From: Escherichia phage vB_EcoS_IME347
Sequence record: MH051918
Reading direction: 5' to 3' (one strand)
DNA: 50,048 bases
Shown here in pieces: positions 38-50,048 of the stretch (positions are counted from its first letter, which is position 1; each line of letters opens with the position of its first letter). Below the pieces are notes generated by a model, which worked only from the letters and a program-made list of their open reading frames with translations, was not told the DNA's origin and did no database searches. The translations under genes and the position numbers were made by a program.

Positions 38-139
38 GTGACAAGATTACATTGACTCGCTGTATATCACTGTCTACAATTTCCCGGATTTGTCGGCGTG
101 ACAAAATTACACCTCGCGCCCCTGAGAGTGAGATTACAT
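38..139 (+). repeat. three direct GTGACAARATTACAY repeats
   Basis: GTGACAAGATTACAT at 38-52, GTGACAAAATTACAC at 98-112, GTGAGATTACAT at 128-139. Start-to-start spacings are 60 and 30 nt. Confidence 0.6.
52..80 (+). promoter_or_regulatory. sigma70-like promoter TTGACT-17-TACAAT
   Basis: TTGACT at 52-57, a 17-nt spacer, TACAAT at 75-80. Flanked by GTGACAARATTACAY repeats. About 365 nt upstream of the first ORF. Confidence 0.55.
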
Positions 140-3492: not shown

Positions 3493-3644
3493 TGGCAACT
3501 TGGTACTTAATCGCGATCACCTATTACGCCGGGGTTCAGCCGATCCCGTTCGACTCGCACAAGGCTTGCATTGATGCGCGAGAGGTAATCAAGAGAAACA
3601 ACCCGACAACCGCAAGCTTGCAGGTTGTATGCGTTAAGAAATAG
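3492..3644 (+). CDS. hypothetical small protein, 50 aa
   Basis: Hand-translated, below the track cutoff (MATWYLIAITYYAGVQPIPFDSHKAC...VCVKK). TAATG overlap. Its stop is the TAG of box 3641-3658. Confidence 0.6.
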   Translation: MATWYLIAITYYAGVQPIPFDSHKACIDAREVIKRNNPTTASLQVVCVKK

Positions 3645-3684
3645 CACGAATTGCTAAACCTTCCGCAAGGCCATTTGATATAGT
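3641..3684 (+). promoter_or_regulatory. box/-10 promoter cassette
   Basis: Box ATAGCACGAATTGCTAAA. Inverted repeat GGCCA/TGGCC (3669-3688). 22 nt spacing to TGaTATAGT (hexamer 3679-3684). Confidence 0.65.
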
Positions 3685-3724
3685 GGCCTTATTGAAGCAG
3701 AGCAACCAATCAGAGGCAATGACC

Positions 3725-3937
3725 ATGAAATTTTATCAAACGAGCCGTAACGCTGTTCTGAAATACTGGATTGAAAACGGCGTTGTGATGTGCAGCGGAA
3801 TGGCGGGCGAGCCGTTTAAGTCAGCAATGACCGTCGAAGATGTGGAATGGGCTGTCAGTCGCGGAATGATGGTTCCGGTTCAGAGCAACCCGTTCGACTA
3901 CTGGAATAAACTGAAGTCAGGGGATCTGTTTAAGTGA
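3725..3937 (+). CDS. hypothetical small early protein, 70 aa
   Basis: Track ORF 3683..3937 trimmed, because 3683-3718 is cassette and leader. ATG 3725 lies 8 nt after AGAGG. ATG 3719 is an alternative start. Confidence 0.7.
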   Translation: MKFYQTSRNAVLKYWIENGVVMCSGMAGEPFKSAMTVEDVEWAVSRGMMVPVQSNPFDYWNKLKSGDLFK

Positions 3938-4167
3938 TTATCGTCAACACCGAAACGGGCGAGGTCATGGATAACTGCATCGTTATCGACGACAAGCCCA
4001 AGCCGAAGAGCAAGGCAGGAACTTACGTTAGGACGGTCTGCAAGGCTCCCGGATGCGGGAATATTTACGAGGCGAAAGCCTCAGACCTGAAGCGCGGTTG
4101 GGGATTGACCTGCTGTAAGTCATGCGCAGCCGTGGTTCGCGAACTTAAAAAGAAAGGGCGTTGGTAA
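3934..4167 (+). CDS. small Cys-rich (putative Zn-binding) protein, 77 aa
   Basis: Track ORF. The GTG start overlaps the upstream TGA (GTGA). The motif CKAPGCG...CCKSC suggests a zinc ribbon. Confidence 0.6.
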   Translation: MIIVNTETGEVMDNCIVIDDKPKPKSKAGTYVRTVCKAPGCGNIYEAKASDLKRGWGLTCCKSCAAVVRELKKKGRW

Positions 4168-4355
4168 TGGAGCGTTTAAGCTACTGGCAGATACTGGATA
4201 AGGCCGGGCGACTGCGCGAGCAGCTTCGCGGGCTACCGGATAATGACCGAATGGAAATAATCGGTCGGGCGTTGCTGGATCTGGTTCACGGCGACGTGAC
4301 CTATCACTCATGCGGCAACGCACAATGGAACCTGACCTTTGAGGTGAAGAAATGA
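4167..4355 (+). CDS. hypothetical small protein, 62 aa
   Basis: Track ORF 4161.. trimmed to ATG 4167 (TAATG overlap with the upstream stop). Confidence 0.7.
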   Translation: MERLSYWQILDKAGRLREQLRGLPDNDRMEIIGRALLDLVHGDVTYHSCGNAQWNLTFEVKK

Positions 4356-4654
4356 ACAACTTGCACGAACTGAAGATTTTCCCGCGCCACTTCTACGGCG
4401 TGAAGATGGGGCAGAAGAAAGCAGAATTCAGGGTTGACGATCGCGGATTCAAAACTGGCGACACGCTCCGCCTTCGCGAATGGCACGAGGGCGACTTTAC
4501 CGGGCGGGAAATCAGCGTTGTGGTGACTGACGTAACCGACGTGACCGAGTTCATCAATCGGGCGAACGCCGAACTGTACAACGGGAACCGCTTCGTAATG
4601 CTGTCGTTCTTCGTGGTTCACGCGAGCCTTTGCGATATCCCGTACATCCGATAG
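4352..4654 (+). CDS. ASCH/DUF3850-like protein, 100 aa
   Basis: HELKIFPRHFYGVKMGQKKAEFRVDDRGFKTGDTLRLREW matches my memory of the DUF3850/ASCH N-terminal pattern. ATGA overlap. Its stop is the TAG of box 4651-4668. Confidence 0.65.
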   Translation: MNNLHELKIFPRHFYGVKMGQKKAEFRVDDRGFKTGDTLRLREWHEGDFTGREISVVVTDVTDVTEFINRANAELYNGNRFVMLSFFVVHASLCDIPYIR

Positions 4655-4725: not shown

Positions 4726-5106
4726 ATGAAATTCAAATGCACAACCGACACAACGAAGAAATTCACTCCGGGCAAAGTCTACGAGACTTCGGCGAGCAAC
4801 GCACTTCACAACGTGGCTATCCGTGACGACTCCGGGCGGACTCGCGTATTTCGTGTAACTCATAACGGCGAAGGTATTCGCTGGAATGTCGGCGGCAATA
4901 AGTCTGCGGTTATGAAAAAGCTTCATCCTACCTTCCGCATCGACGAGTTGGGTACTGTCCATATCAGCGACGGCGAAGTAACCCGAGTCAAGATCGGCGG
5001 TTGGTGCGAGACTGCGGAATCTAAGCGCGAACGAATCACGAAAATCGCTATCGCGGCAACTCTGGTGCTGGTGAGTGTGGCTGTATTCGTGGCGAATCAC
5101 TTCTGA
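4726..5106 (+). CDS. hypothetical protein with C-terminal TM helix, 126 aa (KxKC family N-terminus)
   Basis: Track ORF 4630.. trimmed to ATG 4726, downstream of cassette 4651-4694. AGAGGAAG RBS. C-terminal helix IAIAATLVLVSVAVFV. Confidence 0.75.
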   Translation: MKFKCTTDTTKKFTPGKVYETSASNALHNVAIRDDSGRTRVFRVTHNGEGIRWNVGGNKSAVMKKLHPTFRIDELGTVHISDGEVTRVKIGGWCETAESKRERITKIAIAATLVLVSVAVFVANHF

Positions 5107-9580: not shown

Positions 9581-9598
9581 ATAGCACGAAATGTTAAA
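9581..9598 (+). promoter_or_regulatory. box copy in the terS leader
   Basis: ATAGCACGAAATGTTAAA lies between TGaTAAAAT (9574-9582) and the GGAGGA RBS. No -10 lies 22 nt downstream. Confidence 0.45.
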
Positions 9599-9614
9599 CA
9601 TCGGAGGACGTTTT

Positions 9615-16080: not shown

Positions 16081-16092
16081 CACAAAAACAGT

Positions 16093-16120
16093 TTGACGCT
16101 TTAACAAAAAGTGCTATCAT
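16093..16120 (+). promoter_or_regulatory. sigma70-like promoter TTGACG-16-TGcTATCAT (capsid gene)
   Basis: TTGACG at 16093-16098 and TATCAT at 16115-16120. The predicted +1 (~16127) lies inside the 5' arm of terminator 16121-16148. Confidence 0.55.
16100..16117 (-). promoter_or_regulatory. inverted box copy forming the spacer and TGn of the capsid promoter
   Basis: The plus strand reads TTTAACAAAAAGTGCTAT, embedded in TTGACG-16-TATCAT. Confidence 0.5.
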
Positions 16121-16148
16121 AAAGCCGTTATCACTTAACGGCTTTTTT
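16121..16148 (+). terminator. intrinsic terminator immediately upstream of the capsid gene
   Basis: AGCCGTTA-tcact-TAACGGCT followed by T6. Confidence 0.75.
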
Positions 16149-19880: not shown

Positions 19881-19907
19881 CACTGTATCAAATCAATACG
19901 GCGCTGT

Positions 19908-19925
19908 TTTAACAAAAAGTGCTAT
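19908..19925 (-). promoter_or_regulatory. inverted box copy upstream of the tail chaperone gene
   Basis: The plus strand reads TTTAACAAAAAGTGCTAT followed by CAC, giving TGcTATCAC. Lies 24 nt before ATG 19949. Confidence 0.45.
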
Positions 19926-26079: not shown

Positions 26080-26097
26080 ATAGCACAAAAGGTTAAA
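26080..26097 (+). promoter_or_regulatory. box copy in the J-like gene leader
   Basis: ATAGCACAAAAGGTTAAA lies 14 nt after CTGTATAAT (26057-26065) and 4 nt before ATG 26102. Confidence 0.45.
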
Positions 26098-26101
26098 CAT
26101 C

Positions 26102-36839: not shown

Positions 36840-36873
36840 AAAAAACGCGTAACAGGAGTTTACCCGCTACGCG
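36840..36873 (-). terminator. terminator-like hairpin enclosing the primase -10
   Basis: Read on the minus strand: CGCGTA, a 16-nt loop, TACGCG, then T6 and ATTGGAG. Confidence 0.45.
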
Positions 36874-36900
36874 CTTTTGTGTTTTAGCTATTTGTGCTCT
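36857..36900 (-). promoter_or_regulatory. box/-10 promoter cassette (primase)
   Basis: Read on the minus strand: AGAGCACAAATAGCTAAA. 22 nt spacing to TAAACT. The hexamer lies in the loop of CGCGTA/TACGCG, which is followed by T6. Confidence 0.55.
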
Positions 36901-37327
36901 CGACTTCATCCTTTCGAACTACGCGCATGAACTTGCGGTTCTTGCATCGTTTTTCAAGGCACTTTCCGTTAGAGTCGAACTTGAGATCGAATCGCAGCCA
37001 GCTTGCGCGATACCCGGTACAACCCTGACGACGATACGCGCGATGCGCCGCCTCCGCTCCCTGCCAAGAAATCATGCCGCGAACTTTCCATTCGTTCACA
37101 TTCTGATTTGTTACCTTCAGGGCTTTCGCCGTGGCGGAGGGGGAGCCGTAGAATTCGATCAGGGCGTCAAGTCTGGCGCGTAGTCCGGCGCGAACCTCAT
37201 CTTTCAGGATGTAGAATCCGCATCGCTTGCGAGGCTTTACATCTTTGCCCCGTCGTGTACCATTGTTCCCGTTCAGGTGACGACGATCGATTTCCCCGGT
37301 TGATTCTGCAATACGCTTGATTGTCAT
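36884..37327 (-). CDS. HTH DNA-binding protein (YdaS/Cro-like) with basic Cys-containing C-terminus, 147 aa
   Basis: SATAKALKVTNQNVNEWKVRGMISWQGAEAAH resembles the YdaS/Cro-type HTH. Its last codons (AGC ACA AAT AGC TAA) form box 36883-36900. Confidence 0.55.
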   Translation of the reverse strand: MTIKRIAESTGEIDRRHLNGNNGTRRGKDVKPRKRCGFYILKDEVRAGLRARLDALIEFYGSPSATAKALKVTNQNVNEWKVRGMISWQGAEAAHRAYRRQGCTGYRASWLRFDLKFDSNGKCLEKRCKNRKFMRVVRKDEVESTNS

Positions 37328-45003: not shown

Positions 45004-46566
45004 TTACATTAAGCGCGGATTGATATAAATGTTGTCGTCCACACGGCAAACGTAATTCATGCTTTCCAGCGTTTCCAGCAACGTTTCGATACGCTCCGCA
45101 ACCTTTTGCTGCCCGTTAAACGGAGTGACGTTCCGGCACTTCGCGATCACGCTCTGAATCTGCGCCCGGCCTTTGTTCTTTTTGGCGATCTCACTAACCA
45201 CGTCGATAAGCTTGCGTGATTCAGCTTCATCACCTGCGAAACCTGCGGCGTTTGCAGACGAGAGATAAGTTTTTGACAACTCGTTAAACGTCATGATCGC
45301 TTCCTGCATTGTGTCCAAGTCGATCTCACGATTCGCCCGGTTCGGCTTCTCACCAGCCCAATTCTTGATCGTGTGAATCACGGACGCGATACGAATTACG
45401 TGTTTATCGAATTTCCCCAAGTGACCGCGCAACATGGAGTGTGAGTATTTCCCGCCCGCCGCGAAGCTGGCTTCCATATCCTGACGAGCAAGGTTCAGCG
45501 CTCGGGTTGCGTGAAGGCTCAGGCTGAAAACTACCTTCTCTTCGTTCATGACGTTATGAACGAGGCGGTAATATTTGCTCACGAGCGCCTTGTCAACTGG
45601 CTTGTAAACTGCGTCGCCGTTCTCGTCACACAATACGCGAGTACCCAAACGAGGCTCTTCGCGAACCAGTAAGAAACGCTCGGAAACACCGATACCGCGC
45701 TGACCTGCATCCATGATGCCCTTGATTGTTTCGTCCTGCGCGATTACGCAAATTGCACCAACCGGACGTAAAGAAAGGTTGTTGTCCTGATTGGATCGAG
45801 CTACTTCCATATGGTTCATATCCCAAGCCTTCAGGATTAGCTCGCTGTTCGACTTCTTATCAGTCCCGCCATACGTCAAACCGAGAAGTGTATTGATTGC
45901 CGTCGCTTCGTCCGAGATAACGGAGAAGTTACCCTGAATCGCCGCAACCTTAGCCAAACCCTCTGGAGTAGGATCGGAAACCGCAAACACAACGTTAGCA
46001 GCCTTTTTGAGCTTCTCTTCGATTTTCTCCTTCTCTTCGTACAGGGCAACCATTGAGTTTCCTTTTACGTCGTTCTTGATCTCCTTTTCGATCTTGCGGA
46101 GTTCCCCGGCGAGGCGTGAACGTTCGGCCTTACGCTTCTCGTTGATGCGGTCAATCTCTGCTCGCATCGGGTTAATGGCTGCGGAGTTGATCGCAGATTT
46201 ACCCGTTGACGGCGGCTGGCTGATTACCATGTAAAGTGCGGTTGGCTGCTCTTCACCGTGATAGTCAACCCAAAAGCGACCGAGCATCGCGGCGGACATA
46301 CATCCGATAAAGTGAGCGTATGCGGACGAAACCGGGAATTGCACTGATTCAGCTTTAGCCTTTGCGTATTCGTAAACGAGGTTATCGCCACCGAGGGAAA
46401 TCAACGGAAAACGATCGTTGCCGCTGTTAATCTCTTCGGGCTTATCCCAAAAAGCAAATGAATCCGAGAAGCCGTTTTCGCGAATAGCGATCGCCACCGG
46501 ATTTACTCCAGTAGCTGCGGCGATTTCTTGGATCTGATTGATGGAAAGTTTATTTTGGAAGAACAT
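45004..46566 (-). CDS. DUF3987-like P-loop protein (putative replicative helicase/primase-associated), 520 aa
   Basis: Walker A-like ISQPPSTGKS, preceded by a long N-terminal domain. AAGGAG RBS. Cassette 46595-46638 upstream. The family assignment is from memory of the DUF3987 pattern. Confidence 0.55.
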   Translation of the reverse strand: MFFQNKLSINQIQEIAAATGVNPVAIAIRENGFSDSFAFWDKPEEINSGNDRFPLISLGGDNLVYEYAKAKAESVQFPVSSAYAHFIGCMSAAMLGRFWVDYHGEEQPTALYMVISQPPSTGKSAINSAAINPMRAEIDRINEKRKAERSRLAGELRKIEKEIKNDVKGNSMVALYEEKEKIEEKLKKAANVVFAVSDPTPEGLAKVAAIQGNFSVISDEATAINTLLGLTYGGTDKKSNSELILKAWDMNHMEVARSNQDNNLSLRPVGAICVIAQDETIKGIMDAGQRGIGVSERFLLVREEPRLGTRVLCDENGDAVYKPVDKALVSKYYRLVHNVMNEEKVVFSLSLHATRALNLARQDMEASFAAGGKYSHSMLRGHLGKFDKHVIRIASVIHTIKNWAGEKPNRANREIDLDTMQEAIMTFNELSKTYLSSANAAGFAGDEAESRKLIDVVSEIAKKNKGRAQIQSVIAKCRNVTPFNGQQKVAERIETLLETLESMNYVCRVDDNIYINPRLM

Positions 46567-46594
46567 CGTTTTAACTCCTTATTGGACGGGGTAA

Positions 46595-46638
46595 ATTATA
46601 CCCCGCCCATACTACACGCTTTTAGCTATTTGTGCCAT
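46595..46638 (-). promoter_or_regulatory. box/-10 promoter cassette
   Basis: Read on the minus strand: ATGGCACAAATAGCTAAA. Inverted repeat GGGGTA/TACCCC with TATAAT across the loop. 22 nt spacing. Drives the DUF3987-like gene. Confidence 0.6.
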
Positions 46639-46641
46639 TCG

Positions 46642-47058
46642 TTACAAGTATTTCGCTTCGAACGTTGTCCCGTCCGCGATGGAGAATCCCACCTCTTCGC
46701 GGAACAGAGTCCAGCGACATCCTTCGCTATCGAAGATGTACCCGGCGACGCCACCGAGCGCCCGACCACTTTCAACCTGATAGCGCTTGCCTACTTTGAA
46801 GGACTTCTTCATCGGATTCTTGTGATCAAGCCCGGTACACTTCAGGGTTTTCGTTTTCAACTCGGTGAACTTCGCAAAGTGTATTTCATCGACGTTGTGG
46901 ATCTGGAATTCGTCATGCTTTCCGAGCGGGTAAAACTTTCCGTCAGGGTGCTTTACTTCTCGCGTACCGTCGTCATGCTCGCGGCCTTTATACAGGTTGT
47001 TTGTTGTGAATCCGGTAACTGATTCCGCTGAAGTGCATTTCAGTTTGATAGTTTTCAT
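46642..47058 (-). CDS. hypothetical protein with two KxKC family repeats, 138 aa
   Basis: Track ORF. Contains IKLKCTSAE... and TLKCTGLD...KVGKRYQV. Cassette 47097-47140 upstream. Confidence 0.75.
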   Translation of the reverse strand: MKTIKLKCTSAESVTGFTTNNLYKGREHDDGTREVKHPDGKFYPLGKHDEFQIHNVDEIHFAKFTELKTKTLKCTGLDHKNPMKKSFKVGKRYQVESGRALGGVAGYIFDSEGCRWTLFREEVGFSIADGTTFEAKYL

Positions 47059-47096
47059 CGATTCATTCCTTCTGATTGGTTATCTTGAATAAGGCC

Positions 47097-47140
47097 ACTA
47101 TATCAAATGGCCTTACGGCAATATTAACAAATCGTGCTAT
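47097..47140 (-). promoter_or_regulatory. box/-10 promoter cassette
   Basis: Read on the minus strand: ATAGCACGATTTGTTAAT. GGCCAtttgatatagTGGCC is identical to the hairpin at 3669-3688. 22 nt spacing to TGaTATAGT. Confidence 0.65.
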
Positions 47141-47371
47141 TTACCAAGGAATATAATCCTTTCCCGGCTCCGAATCATCTTCGGCGGTCATAACGAAATT
47201 TGGATCGAATTCGCTTTCTGCATCCATATCCATTTCACCAAGAGCCTGTTCCAAGGTTAAATCCTGATACGCAACTTTGATACAATATTCGCGATTCAGT
47301 CCGGCATCCTGCGCAGTTAAAAAACGATGCCAGAAGTTATCATCATTATTTTTGCAAGGTGCATTGGTCAT
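47141..47371 (-). CDS. hypothetical acidic small protein, 76 aa
   Basis: Track ORF (GTG 47386) trimmed to ATG 47371, which lies 9 nt after GGAG. Confidence 0.65.
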   Translation of the reverse strand: MTNAPCKNNDDNFWHRFLTAQDAGLNREYCIKVAYQDLTLEQALGEMDMDAESEFDPNFVMTAEDDSEPGKDYIPW

Positions 47372-47376
47372 TTCGA

Positions 47377-47601
47377 TTAACTCCACGCATTGATGTAGAT
47401 TGAGTTTTCGACAAGCATCGCGCGGATATCCGGCATTGATGCATTTACCAGCTTTCCGCCCGGAATGGTCCCGACGATGTTATTTCCACGGGAACCTTTC
47501 GTTACGGTAATAACATTAAAGCCTGAAGCGCGATCCAGTTTGATGGTCACTTTGCCTTTTGCTTCGTAGTGCTTGATAATGCTATTTGCTTTAGAGTTCA
47601 T
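47377..47601 (-). CDS. hypothetical small protein, 74 aa
   Basis: Track ORF with an AAGGAAATAAAG RBS. Cassette 47641-47684 upstream. Confidence 0.75.
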   Translation of the reverse strand: MNSKANSIIKHYEAKGKVTIKLDRASGFNVITVTKGSRGNNIVGTIPGGKLVNASMPDIRAMLVENSIYINAWS

Positions 47602-47640
47602 CTTTATTTCCTTGTTTTGTCGTTTCGTTTCGATGGGGTG

Positions 47641-47684
47641 ATAATATCAAATCACCCCGAGGTTGTTTTAGCAATTCGTGCTAT
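47641..47684 (-). promoter_or_regulatory. box/-10 promoter cassette
   Basis: Read on the minus strand: ATAGCACGAATTGCTAAA. Inverted repeat GGGGTGA/TCACCCC. 22 nt spacing to TGaTATTAT. Confidence 0.65.
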
Positions 47685-47827
47685 TTTGAAATGCGATATT
47701 GCATTCCGCTCAAGTCCTCAGGCGACACCGAATAACACGGCTCCCAAGTTCCGTTGACCTTATTGTATTTGCGCACACCTCCAGCGATGCGATACATGCC
47801 GCCGTTATTGTCGTAATAAGTAATCAT
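47681..47827 (-). CDS. hypothetical small protein, 48 aa
   Basis: Hand-translated: MITYYDNNGGMYRIAGGVRKYNKVNGTWEPCYSVSPEDLSGMQYRISK. ATGA overlap with the upstream stop. Its own stop is the TAG of box 47667-47684. Confidence 0.6.
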   Translation of the reverse strand: MITYYDNNGGMYRIAGGVRKYNKVNGTWEPCYSVSPEDLSGMQYRISK

Positions 47828-48147
47828 TGCTTTCCGTCCCACGTCGTGTACATGGTGGACAATCGAACCTTATTCCGTTTCTTCATGTCCTCGTAGCCGT
47901 TGCTCTGCATTTCACGGAATCGAATGATTTCCTCTTTCGTTTCACGATCCGCAATTACGCGAGAGCTTGCACCATTCAGGAAAGCAACCCGGCTTAAATA
48001 GTCGGATCCGTACTTACGAACGCAAGCGGCAACGGTTCTCTCCATGATGTGGACTTGCAGATCCTTCGCGGCCTTCTCTACAGTATCCCCGATACTGCCG
48101 CCCCAGTGAACATCATGATTGACGCGCAACTCATAAACCTTGCTCAT
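47824..48147 (-). CDS. hypothetical protein, 107 aa
   Basis: Track ORF with ATGA overlap with the upstream gene and a GAGG RBS. Confidence 0.75.
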   Translation of the reverse strand: MSKVYELRVNHDVHWGGSIGDTVEKAAKDLQVHIMERTVAACVRKYGSDYLSRVAFLNGASSRVIADRETKEEIIRFREMQSNGYEDMKKRNKVRLSTMYTTWDGKQ

Positions 48148-48368
48148 AATTTAACCTCATTGAATTCGATGAAATCTTGGACATAGGCGCATTCTTTCGC
48201 GTCCTCTTGCCCGGTTAACACTTCACACCCGCCATTGAAGAGCAAGCAACCCGAGCACAAATTGCCGGGGAAATGCTCCTCAACAATCGCAATCCCGGTA
48301 CAACGTCCGCCGCCGAAACGGTGCGGGAAGTCATACGCGCGACAATTGCAGGTTACTTGCTTTCGCAT
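48144..48368 (-). CDS. Cys-rich small protein, 74 aa
   Basis: Track ORF. Contains CNCRAYDFPHRFGGGRC...CSGC...C. TAATG overlap. Confidence 0.7.
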   Translation of the reverse strand: MRKQVTCNCRAYDFPHRFGGGRCTGIAIVEEHFPGNLCSGCLLFNGGCEVLTGQEDAKECAYVQDFIEFNEVKL

Positions 48369-48556
48369 TATTCCGCCTCAGACACAATCACAGGCTCCAG
48401 CTTTTCAAGGCGAACCCGAAAGCTTTCCATGAAAGACTTGCGCTTGATTAAATCTTCGAAAGTCTCAACGGCGATTGATGCGCGATCTCCGCAATAACAG
48501 ACATTCTCTTTCCCGCTTTCTTTGCTGCGGGCAACTACCCGGTAAATTTTGCTCAC
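48368..48556 (-). CDS. hypothetical small protein, 62 aa
   Basis: Track ORF 48368..48604 trimmed to GTG 48556, which overlaps the upstream TGA (GTGA). GGGGAG lies 6 nt upstream. Confidence 0.6.
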   Translation of the reverse strand: MSKIYRVVARSKESGKENVCYCGDRASIAVETFEDLIKRKSFMESFRVRLEKLEPVIVSEAE

Positions 48557-48798
48557 TGCACTGGCTCCCCGTCTAACAAGATGAATACCGCTTCGATGAT
48601 GCATTGCGCTTTGGTCAGTGGCTGAACATCACGCCCGGCAATCTGCCACTTTTTGCCAGCGACGTGATTCACGGTTAAGCTTTTCCCGCCCCTGCACACG
48701 ATGAAATACTTCTGCTCCATCATGCCTTTGGTGTTTACCTCACCGACGACAACGCCATTATCCGTTGCGAAGTCGATCGCGTCAGTTACCTTGTTCAT
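48553..48798 (-). CDS. hypothetical small protein, 81 aa
   Basis: Track ORF with a GGAGATTAAGG RBS. Cassette 48833-48876 upstream. Confidence 0.75.
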   Translation of the reverse strand: MNKVTDAIDFATDNGVVVGEVNTKGMMEQKYFIVCRGGKSLTVNHVAGKKWQIAGRDVQPLTKAQCIIEAVFILLDGEPVQ

Positions 48799-48832
48799 TG
48801 CCTTAATCTCCGTGATTCGTTTCGATGGGGTA

Positions 48833-48876
48833 ATTATGCCAAACTACCCCGATCGCGTTTTAACAAAAAGTGCTAT
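48833..48876 (-). promoter_or_regulatory. box/-10 promoter cassette
   Basis: Read on the minus strand: ATAGCACTTTTTGTTAAA. Inverted repeat GGGGTA/TACCCC. 22 nt spacing to TGgCATAAT. Confidence 0.65.
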
Positions 48877-49194
48877 TTAGAGCGACTCTTCCAGAATTTG
48901 ACGGATGCGGTTGATTGCCTGTAACTTCATGAGATCCCACGAGTGAGATCCGGCGTTCGGTAATTCGTCAAACAGGTTGCTCACCATATCCGTGACCTGC
49001 TCAATACCGGCCTCTTTTGCAGCCTGTTCCAGTGTCGGCTCGGTGACGTCAATCCAGATACCGTCCTTAATGAATTTCGCGACAGGCGGACGATAGGCCA
49101 GTTCCATTTCGATCCCGTCCGCGCCCATAAGGAAGAAAGTCCCGTTGCGTTCGATGAAGTACATTTTCAGTTTGGTGTGGAAATACTTTTTCAT
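48877..49194 (-). CDS. hypothetical protein, 105 aa
   Basis: Track ORF. Its TAA abuts box 48859-48876. Confidence 0.75.
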   Translation of the reverse strand: MKKYFHTKLKMYFIERNGTFFLMGADGIEMELAYRPPVAKFIKDGIWIDVTEPTLEQAAKEAGIEQVTDMVSNLFDELPNAGSHSWDLMKLQAINRIRQILEESL

Positions 49195-49206
49195 GGTTAT
49201 TATTCC

Positions 49207-49437
49207 TTATGCAATGATGAATTTGAAAAGGTCTGCGCCGTAAGCCGTGCGAACAACACAACTCCACGCTGCGCGGCCTTCATGTCCGGAGTCAAGATTA
49301 ACCTGAATCTTAAAGCCAATGCGATCGGTCACGAATACTTTTCCGTCCTCGCGGGTTGCGGTGTACTGATTGCCGGAAACGAAAGCGGCATCACCGAGGG
49401 AGTTAGAAGCAAACACACAAATCATTTTCTTGGTCAT
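49207..49437 (-). CDS. hypothetical small protein, 76 aa
   Basis: Track ORF. Cassette 49472-49515 upstream, with the AACCAATCAGAGAG leader. Confidence 0.75.
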   Translation of the reverse strand: MTKKMICVFASNSLGDAAFVSGNQYTATREDGKVFVTDRIGFKIQVNLDSGHEGRAAWSCVVRTAYGADLFKFIIA

Positions 49438-49471
49438 TTTTGGGAAATCTCTCTGATTGGTTGATGTGTTA

Positions 49472-49515
49472 AGTATGCCCCGAATCCGATCAGGGCGTTT
49501 AGCAATTCGTGCGGT
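49472..49515 (-). promoter_or_regulatory. box/-10 promoter cassette
   Basis: Read on the minus strand: ACCGCACGAATTGCTAAA. Imperfect inverted repeat GCCCTG/CGGGGC. 22 nt spacing to CATACT. Confidence 0.55.
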
Positions 49516-49794
49516 TTAGATAGATTTCTTCGCAACCTTGTATGCTTCCTTGAAAGCCGGAACATCTTCGATTTCAATCCAGAAGCCGGAGCCATAACCA
49601 TCCTCATAGCAAGGGCACTGATCGCAATAGTCGCCCCAAGTTTTCTCAACGCCACCGATAGAAAACCCTGTGGACATTTCGCAAAGCGCTTCCTCTACAG
49701 CTTCGATCTTGTCGGCGTCGTTGTCCATGATTACAAAGTTCCACTTGCCGTTGTATTCAGTACCGAGTTTGATAGATTCGCGCTTGAGTTTCAT
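49516..49794 (-). CDS. hypothetical acidic small protein, 92 aa
   Basis: Track ORF with a GGAG RBS. Cassette 49836-49879 upstream. Its TAA abuts box 49498-49515. Confidence 0.75.
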   Translation of the reverse strand: MKLKRESIKLGTEYNGKWNFVIMDNDADKIEAVEEALCEMSTGFSIGGVEKTWGDYCDQCPCYEDGYGSGFWIEIEDVPAFKEAYKVAKKSI

Positions 49795-49835
49795 GAGTTG
49801 CTCCGTTGTTTTGTGTGCTTCGTTTCGATGAGTGT

Positions 49836-49879
49836 ATTATGCCAAACCAAGCCGATCGATGTTTAGCAAAAAGTGCTAT
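49836..49879 (-). promoter_or_regulatory. box/-10 promoter cassette
   Basis: Read on the minus strand: ATAGCACTTTTTGCTAAA. 22 nt spacing to TGgCATAAT. No clear inverted repeat. First leftward promoter of the right arm. Confidence 0.6.
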
Positions 49880-49894
49880 TCCTGAAATTGTCGA

Positions 49895-49925
49895 TTATTC
49901 CACCGATTCTGGAATAACTGGAATA
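49895..49925. repeat. inverted repeat TTATTCC-N9-GGAATAA plus direct CTGGAATA x2
   Basis: TTATTCC at 49895-49901 and GGAATAA at 49911-49917. A second GGAATA lies at 49920-49925. Confidence 0.5.
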
Positions 49926-49927
49926 CT

Positions 49928-50012
49928 TGATGATTACTCATGATTGCAAATGACAAGTTGTGATTATTGCGTGATGTGGAATGATTGCTGTGATTGTTGC
50001 TTGTAATGCAAT
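49928..50012 (+). repeat. phased TGAT(T/G) repeats
   Basis: TGATT or TGATG occurs near 49931, 49941, 49961, 49971, 49982 and 49991, mostly in steps of 10-11 nt. Followed by TGTAATGCAATGAATG. Confidence 0.5.
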
Positions 50013-50048
50013 GAATGTGGAGGGGAGATTATTATGATGCGCTCCTCG

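Follow-up and report, generated by a model that had tools for sequence, protein, structure and literature searches.

The right end of the genome of Escherichia phage vB_EcoS_IME347 (sequence record MH051918) carries six similar repeats between small leftward genes, all on the minus strand, which raises the questions of what these repeats do and which protein reads them. The whole stretch of 50,048 nucleotides (nt), referred to here as the window, was analysed. A first-pass annotation had described the repeats as cassettes in mirror orientation that drive the leftward genes of the right arm, and this description was supported by inference from their orientation, their gene context and an anatomy typical of sigma-70 promoters. 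Judging by these features, the cassettes are very probably promoters oriented as described. Host activators of the MarA/SoxS/Rob type may be their physiological readers, a proposal to which we assign a probability of roughly 0.55.

Box, hexamer and start region of the cassettes

All six minus-strand copies claimed in the right arm were recovered (Table 1). Each 44-nt interval runs from position 1 of a 20-nt box, through 18 nt, to the last base of a TATAAT-like hexamer. The 22-nt spacing between box and hexamer reported earlier is the distance from TTGCTA to the hexamer and describes the same geometry. Every copy points the same way as the leftward genes; it is preceded by the stop codon of an open reading frame (ORF) and followed by the Shine–Dalgarno sequence and the start codon of another. 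Two properties ascribed to all copies, the common leader motifs and the abutment to an upstream stop codon, were each found in five of the six. The motif CATCGAAACGAA occurs in cassettes 1, 3 and 4 and AACCAATCAGA in cassettes 2 and 5, while cassette 6 has neither motif, its leader reading ..CCAATAAGGAG. In cassettes 2, 3 and 5, the upstream TAA stands 3 nt ahead of the box; in cassette 6 it stands 6 nt ahead; and in cassette 4 the stop codon of the upstream ORF is a TAG within the box, at positions 2–4. No credible gene lies upstream of cassette 1, which opens the arm.

When the pattern GCACNNNTTGCTAA was searched with up to two mismatches, 37 matches were obtained in the window, compared with 13.4 ± 4.0 in shuffled sequences. 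About 25 sites in the genome have a hexamer 17–19 nt past the box, in agreement with the 25 cassettes counted in the first-pass annotation. The phage box, ATAGCACnnnTTGYTAAAAc, is a near-consensus marbox. For scoring we used AYnGCACnnWnnRYYAAAYn, which is reportedly the marbox consensus of Martin and colleagues (1999) and has 14 specified positions, and dinucleotide shuffles served as controls. At least 13 of the 14 positions were matched at 28 sites of the window, against 0.9 in the shuffles, and perfect matches numbered 8 against 0.03. The same threshold gave 21 sites in phage T1 (shuffle mean 1.2), 21 in TLS (1.3) and 16 in Rtp (1.03), and there were only about two unseeded marbox matches in 691 kilobases (kb) of unrelated viral contigs. 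The phage box also fits the consensus given in the literature, 5ʹ-GCAHWWWWTGYYAAA-3ʹ (PMC6900184).

A profile of 71 cassettes, in which conservation at the specified positions is inflated because the copies were picked by the consensus itself, showed near-invariant G4-C5-A6-C7 and T15-A16-A17-A18 with an A/T-rich stretch between them. Conservation of the box is asymmetric (A1, C7, T11, A17 and A18), which favours a monomeric reader with a pair of helix–turn–helix (HTH) motifs over a symmetric dimer.

The distance from box to hexamer is narrowly constrained. A hexamer stands exactly 18 nt past the box at 19 of 28 sites in the window, 13 of 21 in T1, 15 of 21 in TLS and 13 of 16 in Rtp, and the same was observed for 118 of 133 boxes in 28 further T1-like metagenomic loci. 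This spacing puts the centre of the box at about −40.5. In all six right-arm copies, as in all hexamer-bearing cassettes, GCAC is distal and AAA proximal, facing the hexamer and the downstream ORF. No −35 element is recognisable, as the corresponding position reads AAAACA or TAAACA. Within the profile, which admitted only hexamers with A as the second and T as the sixth base, G is found at −14 in 61 of 71 cassettes, giving an extended −10, and A at the predicted +1 in 62 of 71. Among the right-arm copies, TG often occupies −15/−14. The conserved A lies 7 nt past the hexamer, so that the start of the box and the predicted +1 are 50 nt apart, and the predicted 5ʹ leaders measure 20–35 nt, with a mode of 25. 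Upstream, the stop codon falls between 3 nt ahead of the box and box position 2 in 45 of 54 cassettes from the window, T1, TLS and Rtp: TAG at box positions 2–4 is itself the stop of the upstream ORF in 27, and TAA or TGA lies 2–3 nt ahead of the box in 18 others. This double use as a stop codon may be the source of the additional conservation seen for A at box position 3.

This arrangement is that of the class II promoters of the host, in which a forward marbox overlaps the −35 element. Marboxes in forward orientation are concentrated at −41, and in class II promoters no −35 can be recognised. RamA binds micF at about −41; one of its helices reads CGTG (the complement of GCAC) and the other TTT (the complement of AAA), 7 nt apart, and sigma-70 is displaced from the −35 position at this promoter. 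The E. coli K-12 promoters of micF (ACAGCACTGAATGTCAAAAC, 18 nt, TAGAAT), sodA and inaA all consist of a forward box, 18 nt and a −10 hexamer; sodA and inaA are reportedly classed as class II promoters by Martin et al. (1999). Like these three, the phage cassettes have a 20-base-pair (bp) asymmetric marbox in forward orientation, centred near −41 and exactly 18 nt from the −10, and, like host class II promoters in general, they pair a canonical −10 and a predicted start site with a −35 that is poor or missing. Three differences stand out. The host sites belong to scattered genes, whereas some 20–25 phage copies lie within one 50-kb virulent genome. The phage boxes are nearer to the consensus (13–14 of 14 positions) than those of host sodA and inaA (11 of 14). 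Finally, the stop codon inside or adjoining the box and an arm-matched hairpin between box and +1 are specific to the phage.

The box itself has been described before. The sections on promoters, terminators and repeats in the 2024 re-annotation of phage TLS report a 21-nt direct repeat, aaATAGCACnnnTTGnTAAAA, which is intergenic, points with transcription, lies about 76 nt ahead of start codons and occurs in the subtypes AAA, TTT and GAA; similar repeats were noted there in T1, Rtp and Rogue1 (PMC11447400). The window box is the same element, since consensus, co-orientation, the distance of about 76 nt to the start codon and the three subtypes all agree, and the consensus of the TLS authors, derived independently, shows the same pattern as our profile. 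In those sections, the function of the repeat is listed as an open question, with stoperators, enhancer-binding sites or UP-like elements as suggestions, and only three sigma-70-like promoters are reported for TLS; a −10 hexamer 18 nt downstream, a hairpin and a match to the marbox are not mentioned in them (PMC11447400). Our literature search found no paper tying marboxes to phage promoters. While the repeat is already published, its reading as a class II marbox and the architecture described below, which resembles that of promoter-early stem-loops (PeSLs), appear to be new. The central triplet of the box in the window falls into the classes GAA, TTT, AAA and TAA, with mostly GAA in the left arm, mostly AAA or TAA in the middle and a mixture in the right arm. 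Triplet class might tune affinity or timing.

Candidate readers of the box

We propose that each cassette is a compact composite regulatory unit filling the gap between two small phage genes. Its box would be bound as a monomer by the host AraC-family proteins MarA, SoxS and Rob (RamA in Klebsiella, Salmonella and Enterobacter), the forward box near −41 replacing the missing −35 in a class II arrangement. The bound activator would then recruit host sigma-70 RNA polymerase to the −10, often an extended one, that follows 18 nt downstream. The conserved A 7 nt past the hexamer would be the first transcribed base, and the resulting A/C-rich leader of 20–35 nt would carry the ribosome-binding site. 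The hairpin, predicted to occur only in transcripts arriving from upstream, probably serves as an attenuator, a terminator or a 3ʹ stabiliser, as for the PeSLs of T4-type phages.

The box could instead be the operator of a phage-encoded protein, for example the gp23-like HTH regulator (36884–37327), with its likeness to a marbox being coincidental or a case of mimicry. Such a protein would switch the cassettes on, as a middle-gene activator, or off, as a stoperator-like repressor. An HTH ʻtranscriptional regulatorʼ is indeed conserved among these phages (T1 ST23, TLS gp58, Rtp rtp52 and the window), and the gp23-like regulator matches phrog_2856 at E 6e-73, with weak HTH hits of the Cro/YdaS type; a PDB sequence search with it gave nothing significant. 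A canonical sigma-70 promoter at the start of the left arm (TTGACT-17-TACAAT, 52–80, plus strand) could supply the first transcripts, and stoperators or enhancer-binding sites are what the repeat section of the TLS paper itself suggests (PMC11447400). The core of the box, moreover, forms a pseudo-palindrome, TAGCA-N5-TGCTA, with half-sites 10 bp apart. However, this pseudo-palindrome (GCA..TGY) is already contained in the host marbox consensus, and neither the asymmetric conservation (A1, C7, T11, A17–18) nor the strict orientation would be expected for a symmetric dimer. Box, orientation and 18-nt spacing together coincide with host class II marbox promoters, and the boxes precede the earliest genes of both arms, the expression of which must come before phage proteins accumulate. 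We therefore consider a phage-encoded reader unlikely.

Direct reading by host RNA polymerase, through alpha-CTD or sigma region 4 in the manner of an UP element, would make the cassettes strong constitutive promoters that need no extra factor. It is consistent with the three A/T-rich segments of the box, which lie about 10 bp apart (aAATA; the central triplet with TT; TAAAA), and with the extended −10, which can make a −35 dispensable; UP-like enhancer elements are also among the suggestions in the repeat section of the TLS paper (PMC11447400). Yet it leaves the match to 14 marbox positions at class II distance unexplained, and TTGCTA, tried as a sigma-70 −35, was rejected because a spacer of 22 nt would place it too far from the hexamer. 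Invariant G4-C5-A6-C7 and G13, moreover, are not known to belong to the UP-element consensus. Direct reading is accordingly quite improbable in our view.

Other candidates were tried and rejected. The sigma-54 consensus is TGGCAC-N5-TTGC, with GG and GC 12 nt apart, whereas the box has GCAC-N3-TTGC and usually AG for GG. For a symmetric dimer operator at −42, of the CRP/FNR kind, and likewise for an Lrp site (YAGHAWATTWTDCTR), the half-sites fit, but asymmetry, strict orientation and the better fit to the marbox speak against both. The middle promoters of T4 offer a parallel, as on many of these phage promoters a box for the activator MotA takes the place of the −35 ahead of a sigma-70 −10 hexamer, just as the box does in the cassettes. 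The MotA box, however, has its centre at −30, needs AsiA and is recognised by a phage protein, MotA itself, whereas the box studied here is centred near −41, and a tblastn search of the window, T1, TLS and Rtp found no phage-encoded MarA/Rob homologue (best E 0.63).

Several points weigh against the reading of the cassettes as promoters served by host activators. Besides the selection effect in the 71-cassette profile, conservation extends beyond the marbox consensus at A3, T11 and T12, and box position 19 is A rather than Y in 50 of 71 cassettes, the same as in micF, so that another or an additional reader is possible. Without stress, cells contain little MarA or SoxS and most of their Rob is tied up in aggregates; reliance on these proteins for early genes is not obviously safe for a virulent phage. 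Classical T1-resistant mutants map to tonA and tonB and are not known to map to rob, mar or sox, which indicates that any dependence on these activators would be partial or redundant. The extended −10 present in many cassettes might let them fire without an activator. No transcriptome of a T1-like phage was found in the literature. Good boxes without a hexamer at 18 nt are present at 9581, 26080 and 35799 and, in reverse orientation, at 16117; of these, the orphan boxes at 9581 and 26080 do not fit the promoter model. Reverse-oriented boxes lie in intergenic gaps between late genes (16092–16148 and 19906–19925).

The two orphan boxes (9581–9600 and 26080–26099) are perfect 14/14 marboxes flush against a ribosome-binding site and start codon, the former adjoining the small terminase gene and the latter the large tail-fibre gene. 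The reverse complement of the boxes at 16092 and 19906 gives TGcTATCAT or TGcTATCAC, an extended −10 on the plus strand. At 16092, TTGACG-16-TATCAT is followed immediately by a true T-run terminator, the 5ʹ arm of which would include the start site. The box after the major tail gene is reversed in T1 at the equivalent site and forward in Rtp.

The hairpin between box and predicted start site

Three quarters of the cassettes can form a stable hairpin between the box and +1, folding at −8 kcal/mol or below. Over the cassettes, the mean minimum free energy (MFE) is −10.4 kcal/mol for 35 nt and the mean z is −3.1. Stem sequences vary among cassettes and the two arms of each cassette match each other, the native arms giving −13.9 kcal/mol compared with −6.4 in arm-swapped chimeras. 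Hairpins of type A lie in the spacer, with the 3ʹ arm ending at the first bases of the hexamer, and those of type B enclose the hexamer and end at −1; one or the other is present in five of the six right-arm copies. Since the hairpin ends at or before +1, it would be excluded from the RNA of its own promoter and present only in RNA reading through from upstream. Four cassettes that stand first in their arms (window 49879, TLS 49782, Rtp 46160 and 45919) are without it. Together, position and absence suggest that the hairpin probably acts on upstream transcripts.

A comparable architecture is known from the PeSLs of the T4-type phages RB49, phi1, PST and nt-1, in which the stem-loop is placed between −35 and −10 or overlaps the −10. 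Experiments showed that it terminates transcription, and crossover points were mapped inside the cassettes (PMC2839356, PMC4122927). Like PeSLs, the T1-like cassettes are composite units of about 100 bp that reach from the stop codon of one small early ORF to the start codon of the next and hold a promoter with a G+C-rich stem-loop ahead of or overlapping the −10. Like PeSLs, too, they form conserved islands in hyperplastic early regions, flanking non-homologous genes and bounding indels. The two differ in that PeSLs have consensus −35/−10 sigma-70 promoters with an A/T-rich upstream region, whereas the cassettes have a marbox, and in that PeSL phages belong to a family unrelated to Drexlerviridae. 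Moreover, terminator and promoter activity and mini-circles were demonstrated by experiment for PeSLs, whereas the promoters and hairpins of the T1-like cassettes are predictions from sequence.

A few hairpins have T runs (36900 and 40901), and most are without a U tract. Within 46400–50048, terminator-like sites numbered just 3, compared with 4.0 expected, and none on the cassette strand has a U tract, for which reason classical intrinsic terminators at the right-arm cassettes were rejected. Also rejected were an N4-type hairpin or single-strand promoter, as the loops measure 5–8 nt and contain an ordinary −10 and the family has no known phage RNA polymerase, and an RNase III site, as the stems are just 6–11 bp long. 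The minus-strand cassette at 36840–36900, which follows the gene of the gp23-like HTH regulator, has as its hairpin a canonical intrinsic terminator, GCGCGTAGCGGG..CCTGTTACGCG followed by TTTTTT; even so, a −10-like TAAACT at the usual distance of 18 nt falls inside this hairpin. In deposited T1-like genomes (OL960578.1 and T1 itself, NC_005833), many ʻrho-independent terminatorʼ features are cassette hairpins that enclose or adjoin the −10 hexamer and have no U tract, and almost no cassette promoters are annotated in these two records.

Table 1. Positions in the window of the right-arm cassettes, numbered from the right end, and of the left-arm partner of cassette 5, with predicted start sites (+1), hairpins and candidate target genes; scores are matched marbox positions out of 14.
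Feature	Coordinates	Strand	Details
Cassette 1, first of right arm	49836–49879	−	box ATAGCACTTTTTGCTAAACA at 49860–49879, 14/14; 18-nt spacer; TGg-CATAAT, hexamer 49836–49841
Cassette 1, start and leader	49829	−	predicted +1 = A; leader CATCGAAACGAA
Cassette 1, hairpin	49836–49879	−	none; MFE −2.4, z +0.8
Cassette 1, target	49516–49794	−	ORF, 92 amino acids, DUF5417
Cassette 2	49472–49515	−	box ACCGCACGAATTGCTAAACG at 49496–49515, 14/14; CATACT 49472–49477; predicted +1 49465; leader ..AACCAATCAGAGAG
Cassette 2, targets	49207–49437 and 48877–49194	−	ORFs
Cassette 2, hairpin	49477–49496	−	type A, within spacer; GCCCTGA..TCGGGGC; 3ʹ arm ends at first base of hexamer; MFE −13.2, z −3.7
Cassette 3	48833–48876	−	box ATAGCACTTTTTGTTAAAAC at 48857–48876, 13/14; TGg-CATAAT 48833–48838; predicted +1 48826; leader CATCGAAACGAA
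Cassette 3, targets	48798 down to 47681	−	run of five ORFs
Cassette 3, hairpin	48827–48850	−	type B; GGGGTAGTT..AATTACCCC; encloses −10 hexamer, ends at −1; MFE −13.9, z −3.8
Cassette 4	47641–47684	−	box ATAGCACGAATTGCTAAAAC at 47665–47684, 13/14; TGa-TATTAT 47641–47646; predicted +1 47634; leader CATCGAAACGAA
Cassette 4, targets	47377–47601 and 47141–47371	−	ORFs
Cassette 4, hairpin	47635–47658	−	type B; GGGGTGAT..ATCACCCC; encloses −10 hexamer, ends at −1; MFE −14.6, z −5.0
Cassette 5	47097–47140	−	weaker box ATAGCACGATTTGTTAATAT at 47121–47140, 12/14; TGa-TATAGT 47097–47102; predicted +1 47090; leader ..AACCAATCAGAAGG
Cassette 5, target	46642–47058	−	ORF, 138 amino acids, T1 gp7 homologue; protein alignment score 598
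Cassette 5, hairpin	47089–47116	−	type B; core AAGGCCA..TGGCCTT; MFE −15.4, z −5.1
Cassette 6	46595–46638	−	box ATGGCACAAATAGCTAAAAG at 46619–46638, 13/14; TATAAT 46595–46600; short leader without the common motifs
Cassette 6, target	45004–46566	−	helicase gene, T1 gp9 homologue; helicase annotation in relatives
Cassette 6, hairpin	46583–46609	−	type B; GGGCGGGGTA..TACCCCGTCC; encloses −10 hexamer; MFE −21.0
Left-arm partner cassette	3641–3684	+	box ATAGCACGAATTGCTAAACC, 14/14; TGa-TATAGT; 27-mer 3667–3693
Left-arm partner cassette, target	3725–3937	+	ORF

Cassette lineages, gene modules and genome setting

Cassette 5 had been reported to share its hairpin and leader with a left-arm copy at 3669–3693 on the other strand, and this identity was borne out over a slightly longer stretch. 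The 27-mer AAGGCCATTTGATATAGTGGCCTTATT is identical at 3667–3693 on the plus strand and 47114–47088 on the minus strand; it takes in the hairpin, the −10 hexamer and the first part of the leader. The first-pass annotation took this identity as a sign of recent duplication or exchange between the divergently transcribed arms, that is, between 47097–47140 and 3641–3693. Both copies do carry the AACCAATCAGA motif, and the right-arm and left-arm copies of T1 differ at 2 of these 27 positions, so that a short conversion tract in the window lineage is possible. Each copy, however, proved closer to another genus than to its partner. Cassette 5 has its positional orthologue in the T1 cassette that precedes gene 7 (T1 minus strand, 47117), with which it shares the unusual box, ATAGCACGATTTGTTAATAT; the variable parts are 94% identical, the hairpins differ by 2 nt, and the proteins encoded downstream are homologues. 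The left-arm copy at 3641 has an identity of 0.90 to the TLS cassette at +5136, compared with 77% between the two window copies outside the box. The 27-mer is also found identically in T1 (+3561) and TLS (+5162). In addition, boxes and spacers of the two window copies differ (GAATTGCTAAACCTTCCGC versus GATTTGTTAATATTGCCGT), with the T1 orthologue having the right-arm version, and their downstream genes are unrelated (alignment score 35). Most window cassettes likewise have their nearest relative in another genus and not in their own genome. As the cross-genus counterparts are closer than the partner within the genome, both cassette lineages are older than the split of these genera. The comparison of window and T1 would leave, at most, a conversion or mutation of 2 nt, and a recent duplication of the cassette is very unlikely.

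Comparison with related genomes, with cassettes set against genes, supported the suggestion that cassettes evolve independently of genes. Similarity of the early arms to T1, TLS and Rtp is mostly confined to the 50–100 bp of the cassettes. T1 has a nearly identical version of the cassette at 3641, followed by a different gene. The segment 3630–3732, which covers this cassette, matches 435 phage records, from phages of Escherichia, Klebsiella, Shigella, Salmonella, Citrobacter, Enterobacter and Cronobacter. Relative to T1, the window has an insertion of about 1 kb at 3725–4650, bounded by the cassettes at 3641 and 4651; after the second of these comes the T1 gene 68 homologue (4726–5106), and the layout resembles a cassette-bounded indel of the PeSL type. 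These patterns support cassette-bounded exchange of modules over evolutionary time, as with PeSLs, and since the cassettes are conserved while the intervening genes turn over, they mark, and probably mediate, the boundaries of gene modules.

The same patterns could be taken to mean that the main role of the cassettes is that of recombination substrates or of mobile boundaries between modules, with their regulatory appearance coming second and the hairpin selected as a DNA feature (such as a cruciform or recombination hotspot). The concentration of early-arm similarity in the cassettes, the 435 records, the cassette-bounded insertion and the PeSL precedent of crossovers mapped inside cassettes all agree with such a role. 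It leaves unexplained, however, the 18-nt spacing, the conservation of −10 and +1 and the strict co-orientation with genes, and it is compatible with promoters read by host activators rather than an alternative to them. We consider it highly improbable as the primary function.

The whole window is collinear with coliphage T1, and its gene order from left to right is rightward small early genes, terminase and structural genes, replication and lysis genes, and the leftward block of small genes. Its top nucleotide matches are T1-like Drexlerviridae (among them SRT8, IME-JL8 and BrunoManser), with about 76% identity in the right arm, and its major capsid protein is 91% identical to the SRT8 counterpart. 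The end of the window (49967–50029) aligns to T1 2–65 and its start (13–226) to T1 97–309, and the gap of 31 nt between the two matches is equal in window and T1. As end and start match adjoining T1 segments across an equal gap, the 50,048 nt are a complete, circularly permuted genome, in which both arms diverge from a single control region across the junction. This A+T-rich region (1–450 and 49880–50048) contains CGTGACAAnATTACA twice (37–51 and 97–111), direct and inverted repeats of the TATAGGGTGTACAC type at 209–347 and the canonical promoter at 52–80 mentioned above. A minus-strand marbox at 17–36 has no hexamer at 18 nt, and a CATAAT lies 28 nt downstream across the junction (50031–50036). 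A scan of the whole window against Rfam gave no family, and a tRNA search of it found none.

Close relatives, in which we looked for Drexlerviridae outside the Enterobacteriaceae as a natural control, were all enterobacterial phages. Three records labelled as Campylobacter or Streptococcus phages (MG065657.1, MG065688.1 and OR786094.1) have capsid genes 50–78% identical to those of the window phage and probably represent contaminant or wrongly labelled genomes.

The class II marbox reading offers a specific mechanism for the published repeat. It may answer the question raised for TLS and would account for most of the ʻmissingʼ promoters of that genome, while the cassette reading explains dozens of ʻrho-independent terminatorsʼ annotated ahead of early genes in database records. 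It also extends the PeSL concept, shuffling by promoter–terminator cassettes, from T4-type myoviruses to an unrelated family of siphoviruses. Whether T1 and the Drexlerviridae have wired nearly all of their early and middle promoters (about 20–25 per genome) to the antibiotic and stress activators MarA, SoxS, Rob and RamA of the host is a more tentative matter, on which we lean slightly to the sceptical side. If this is true, the sensing of antibiotics, bile salts or oxidative stress by the host would raise phage gene expression, and many high-affinity boxes on replicating phage DNA could titrate the activators, blunting the envelope and efflux response. The reading, if correct, would link very common phages of Escherichia, Klebsiella and Salmonella, many of which have been proposed for therapy, to the regulators of multidrug resistance, and it predicts that antibiotics, bile or salicylate interact with phage growth.

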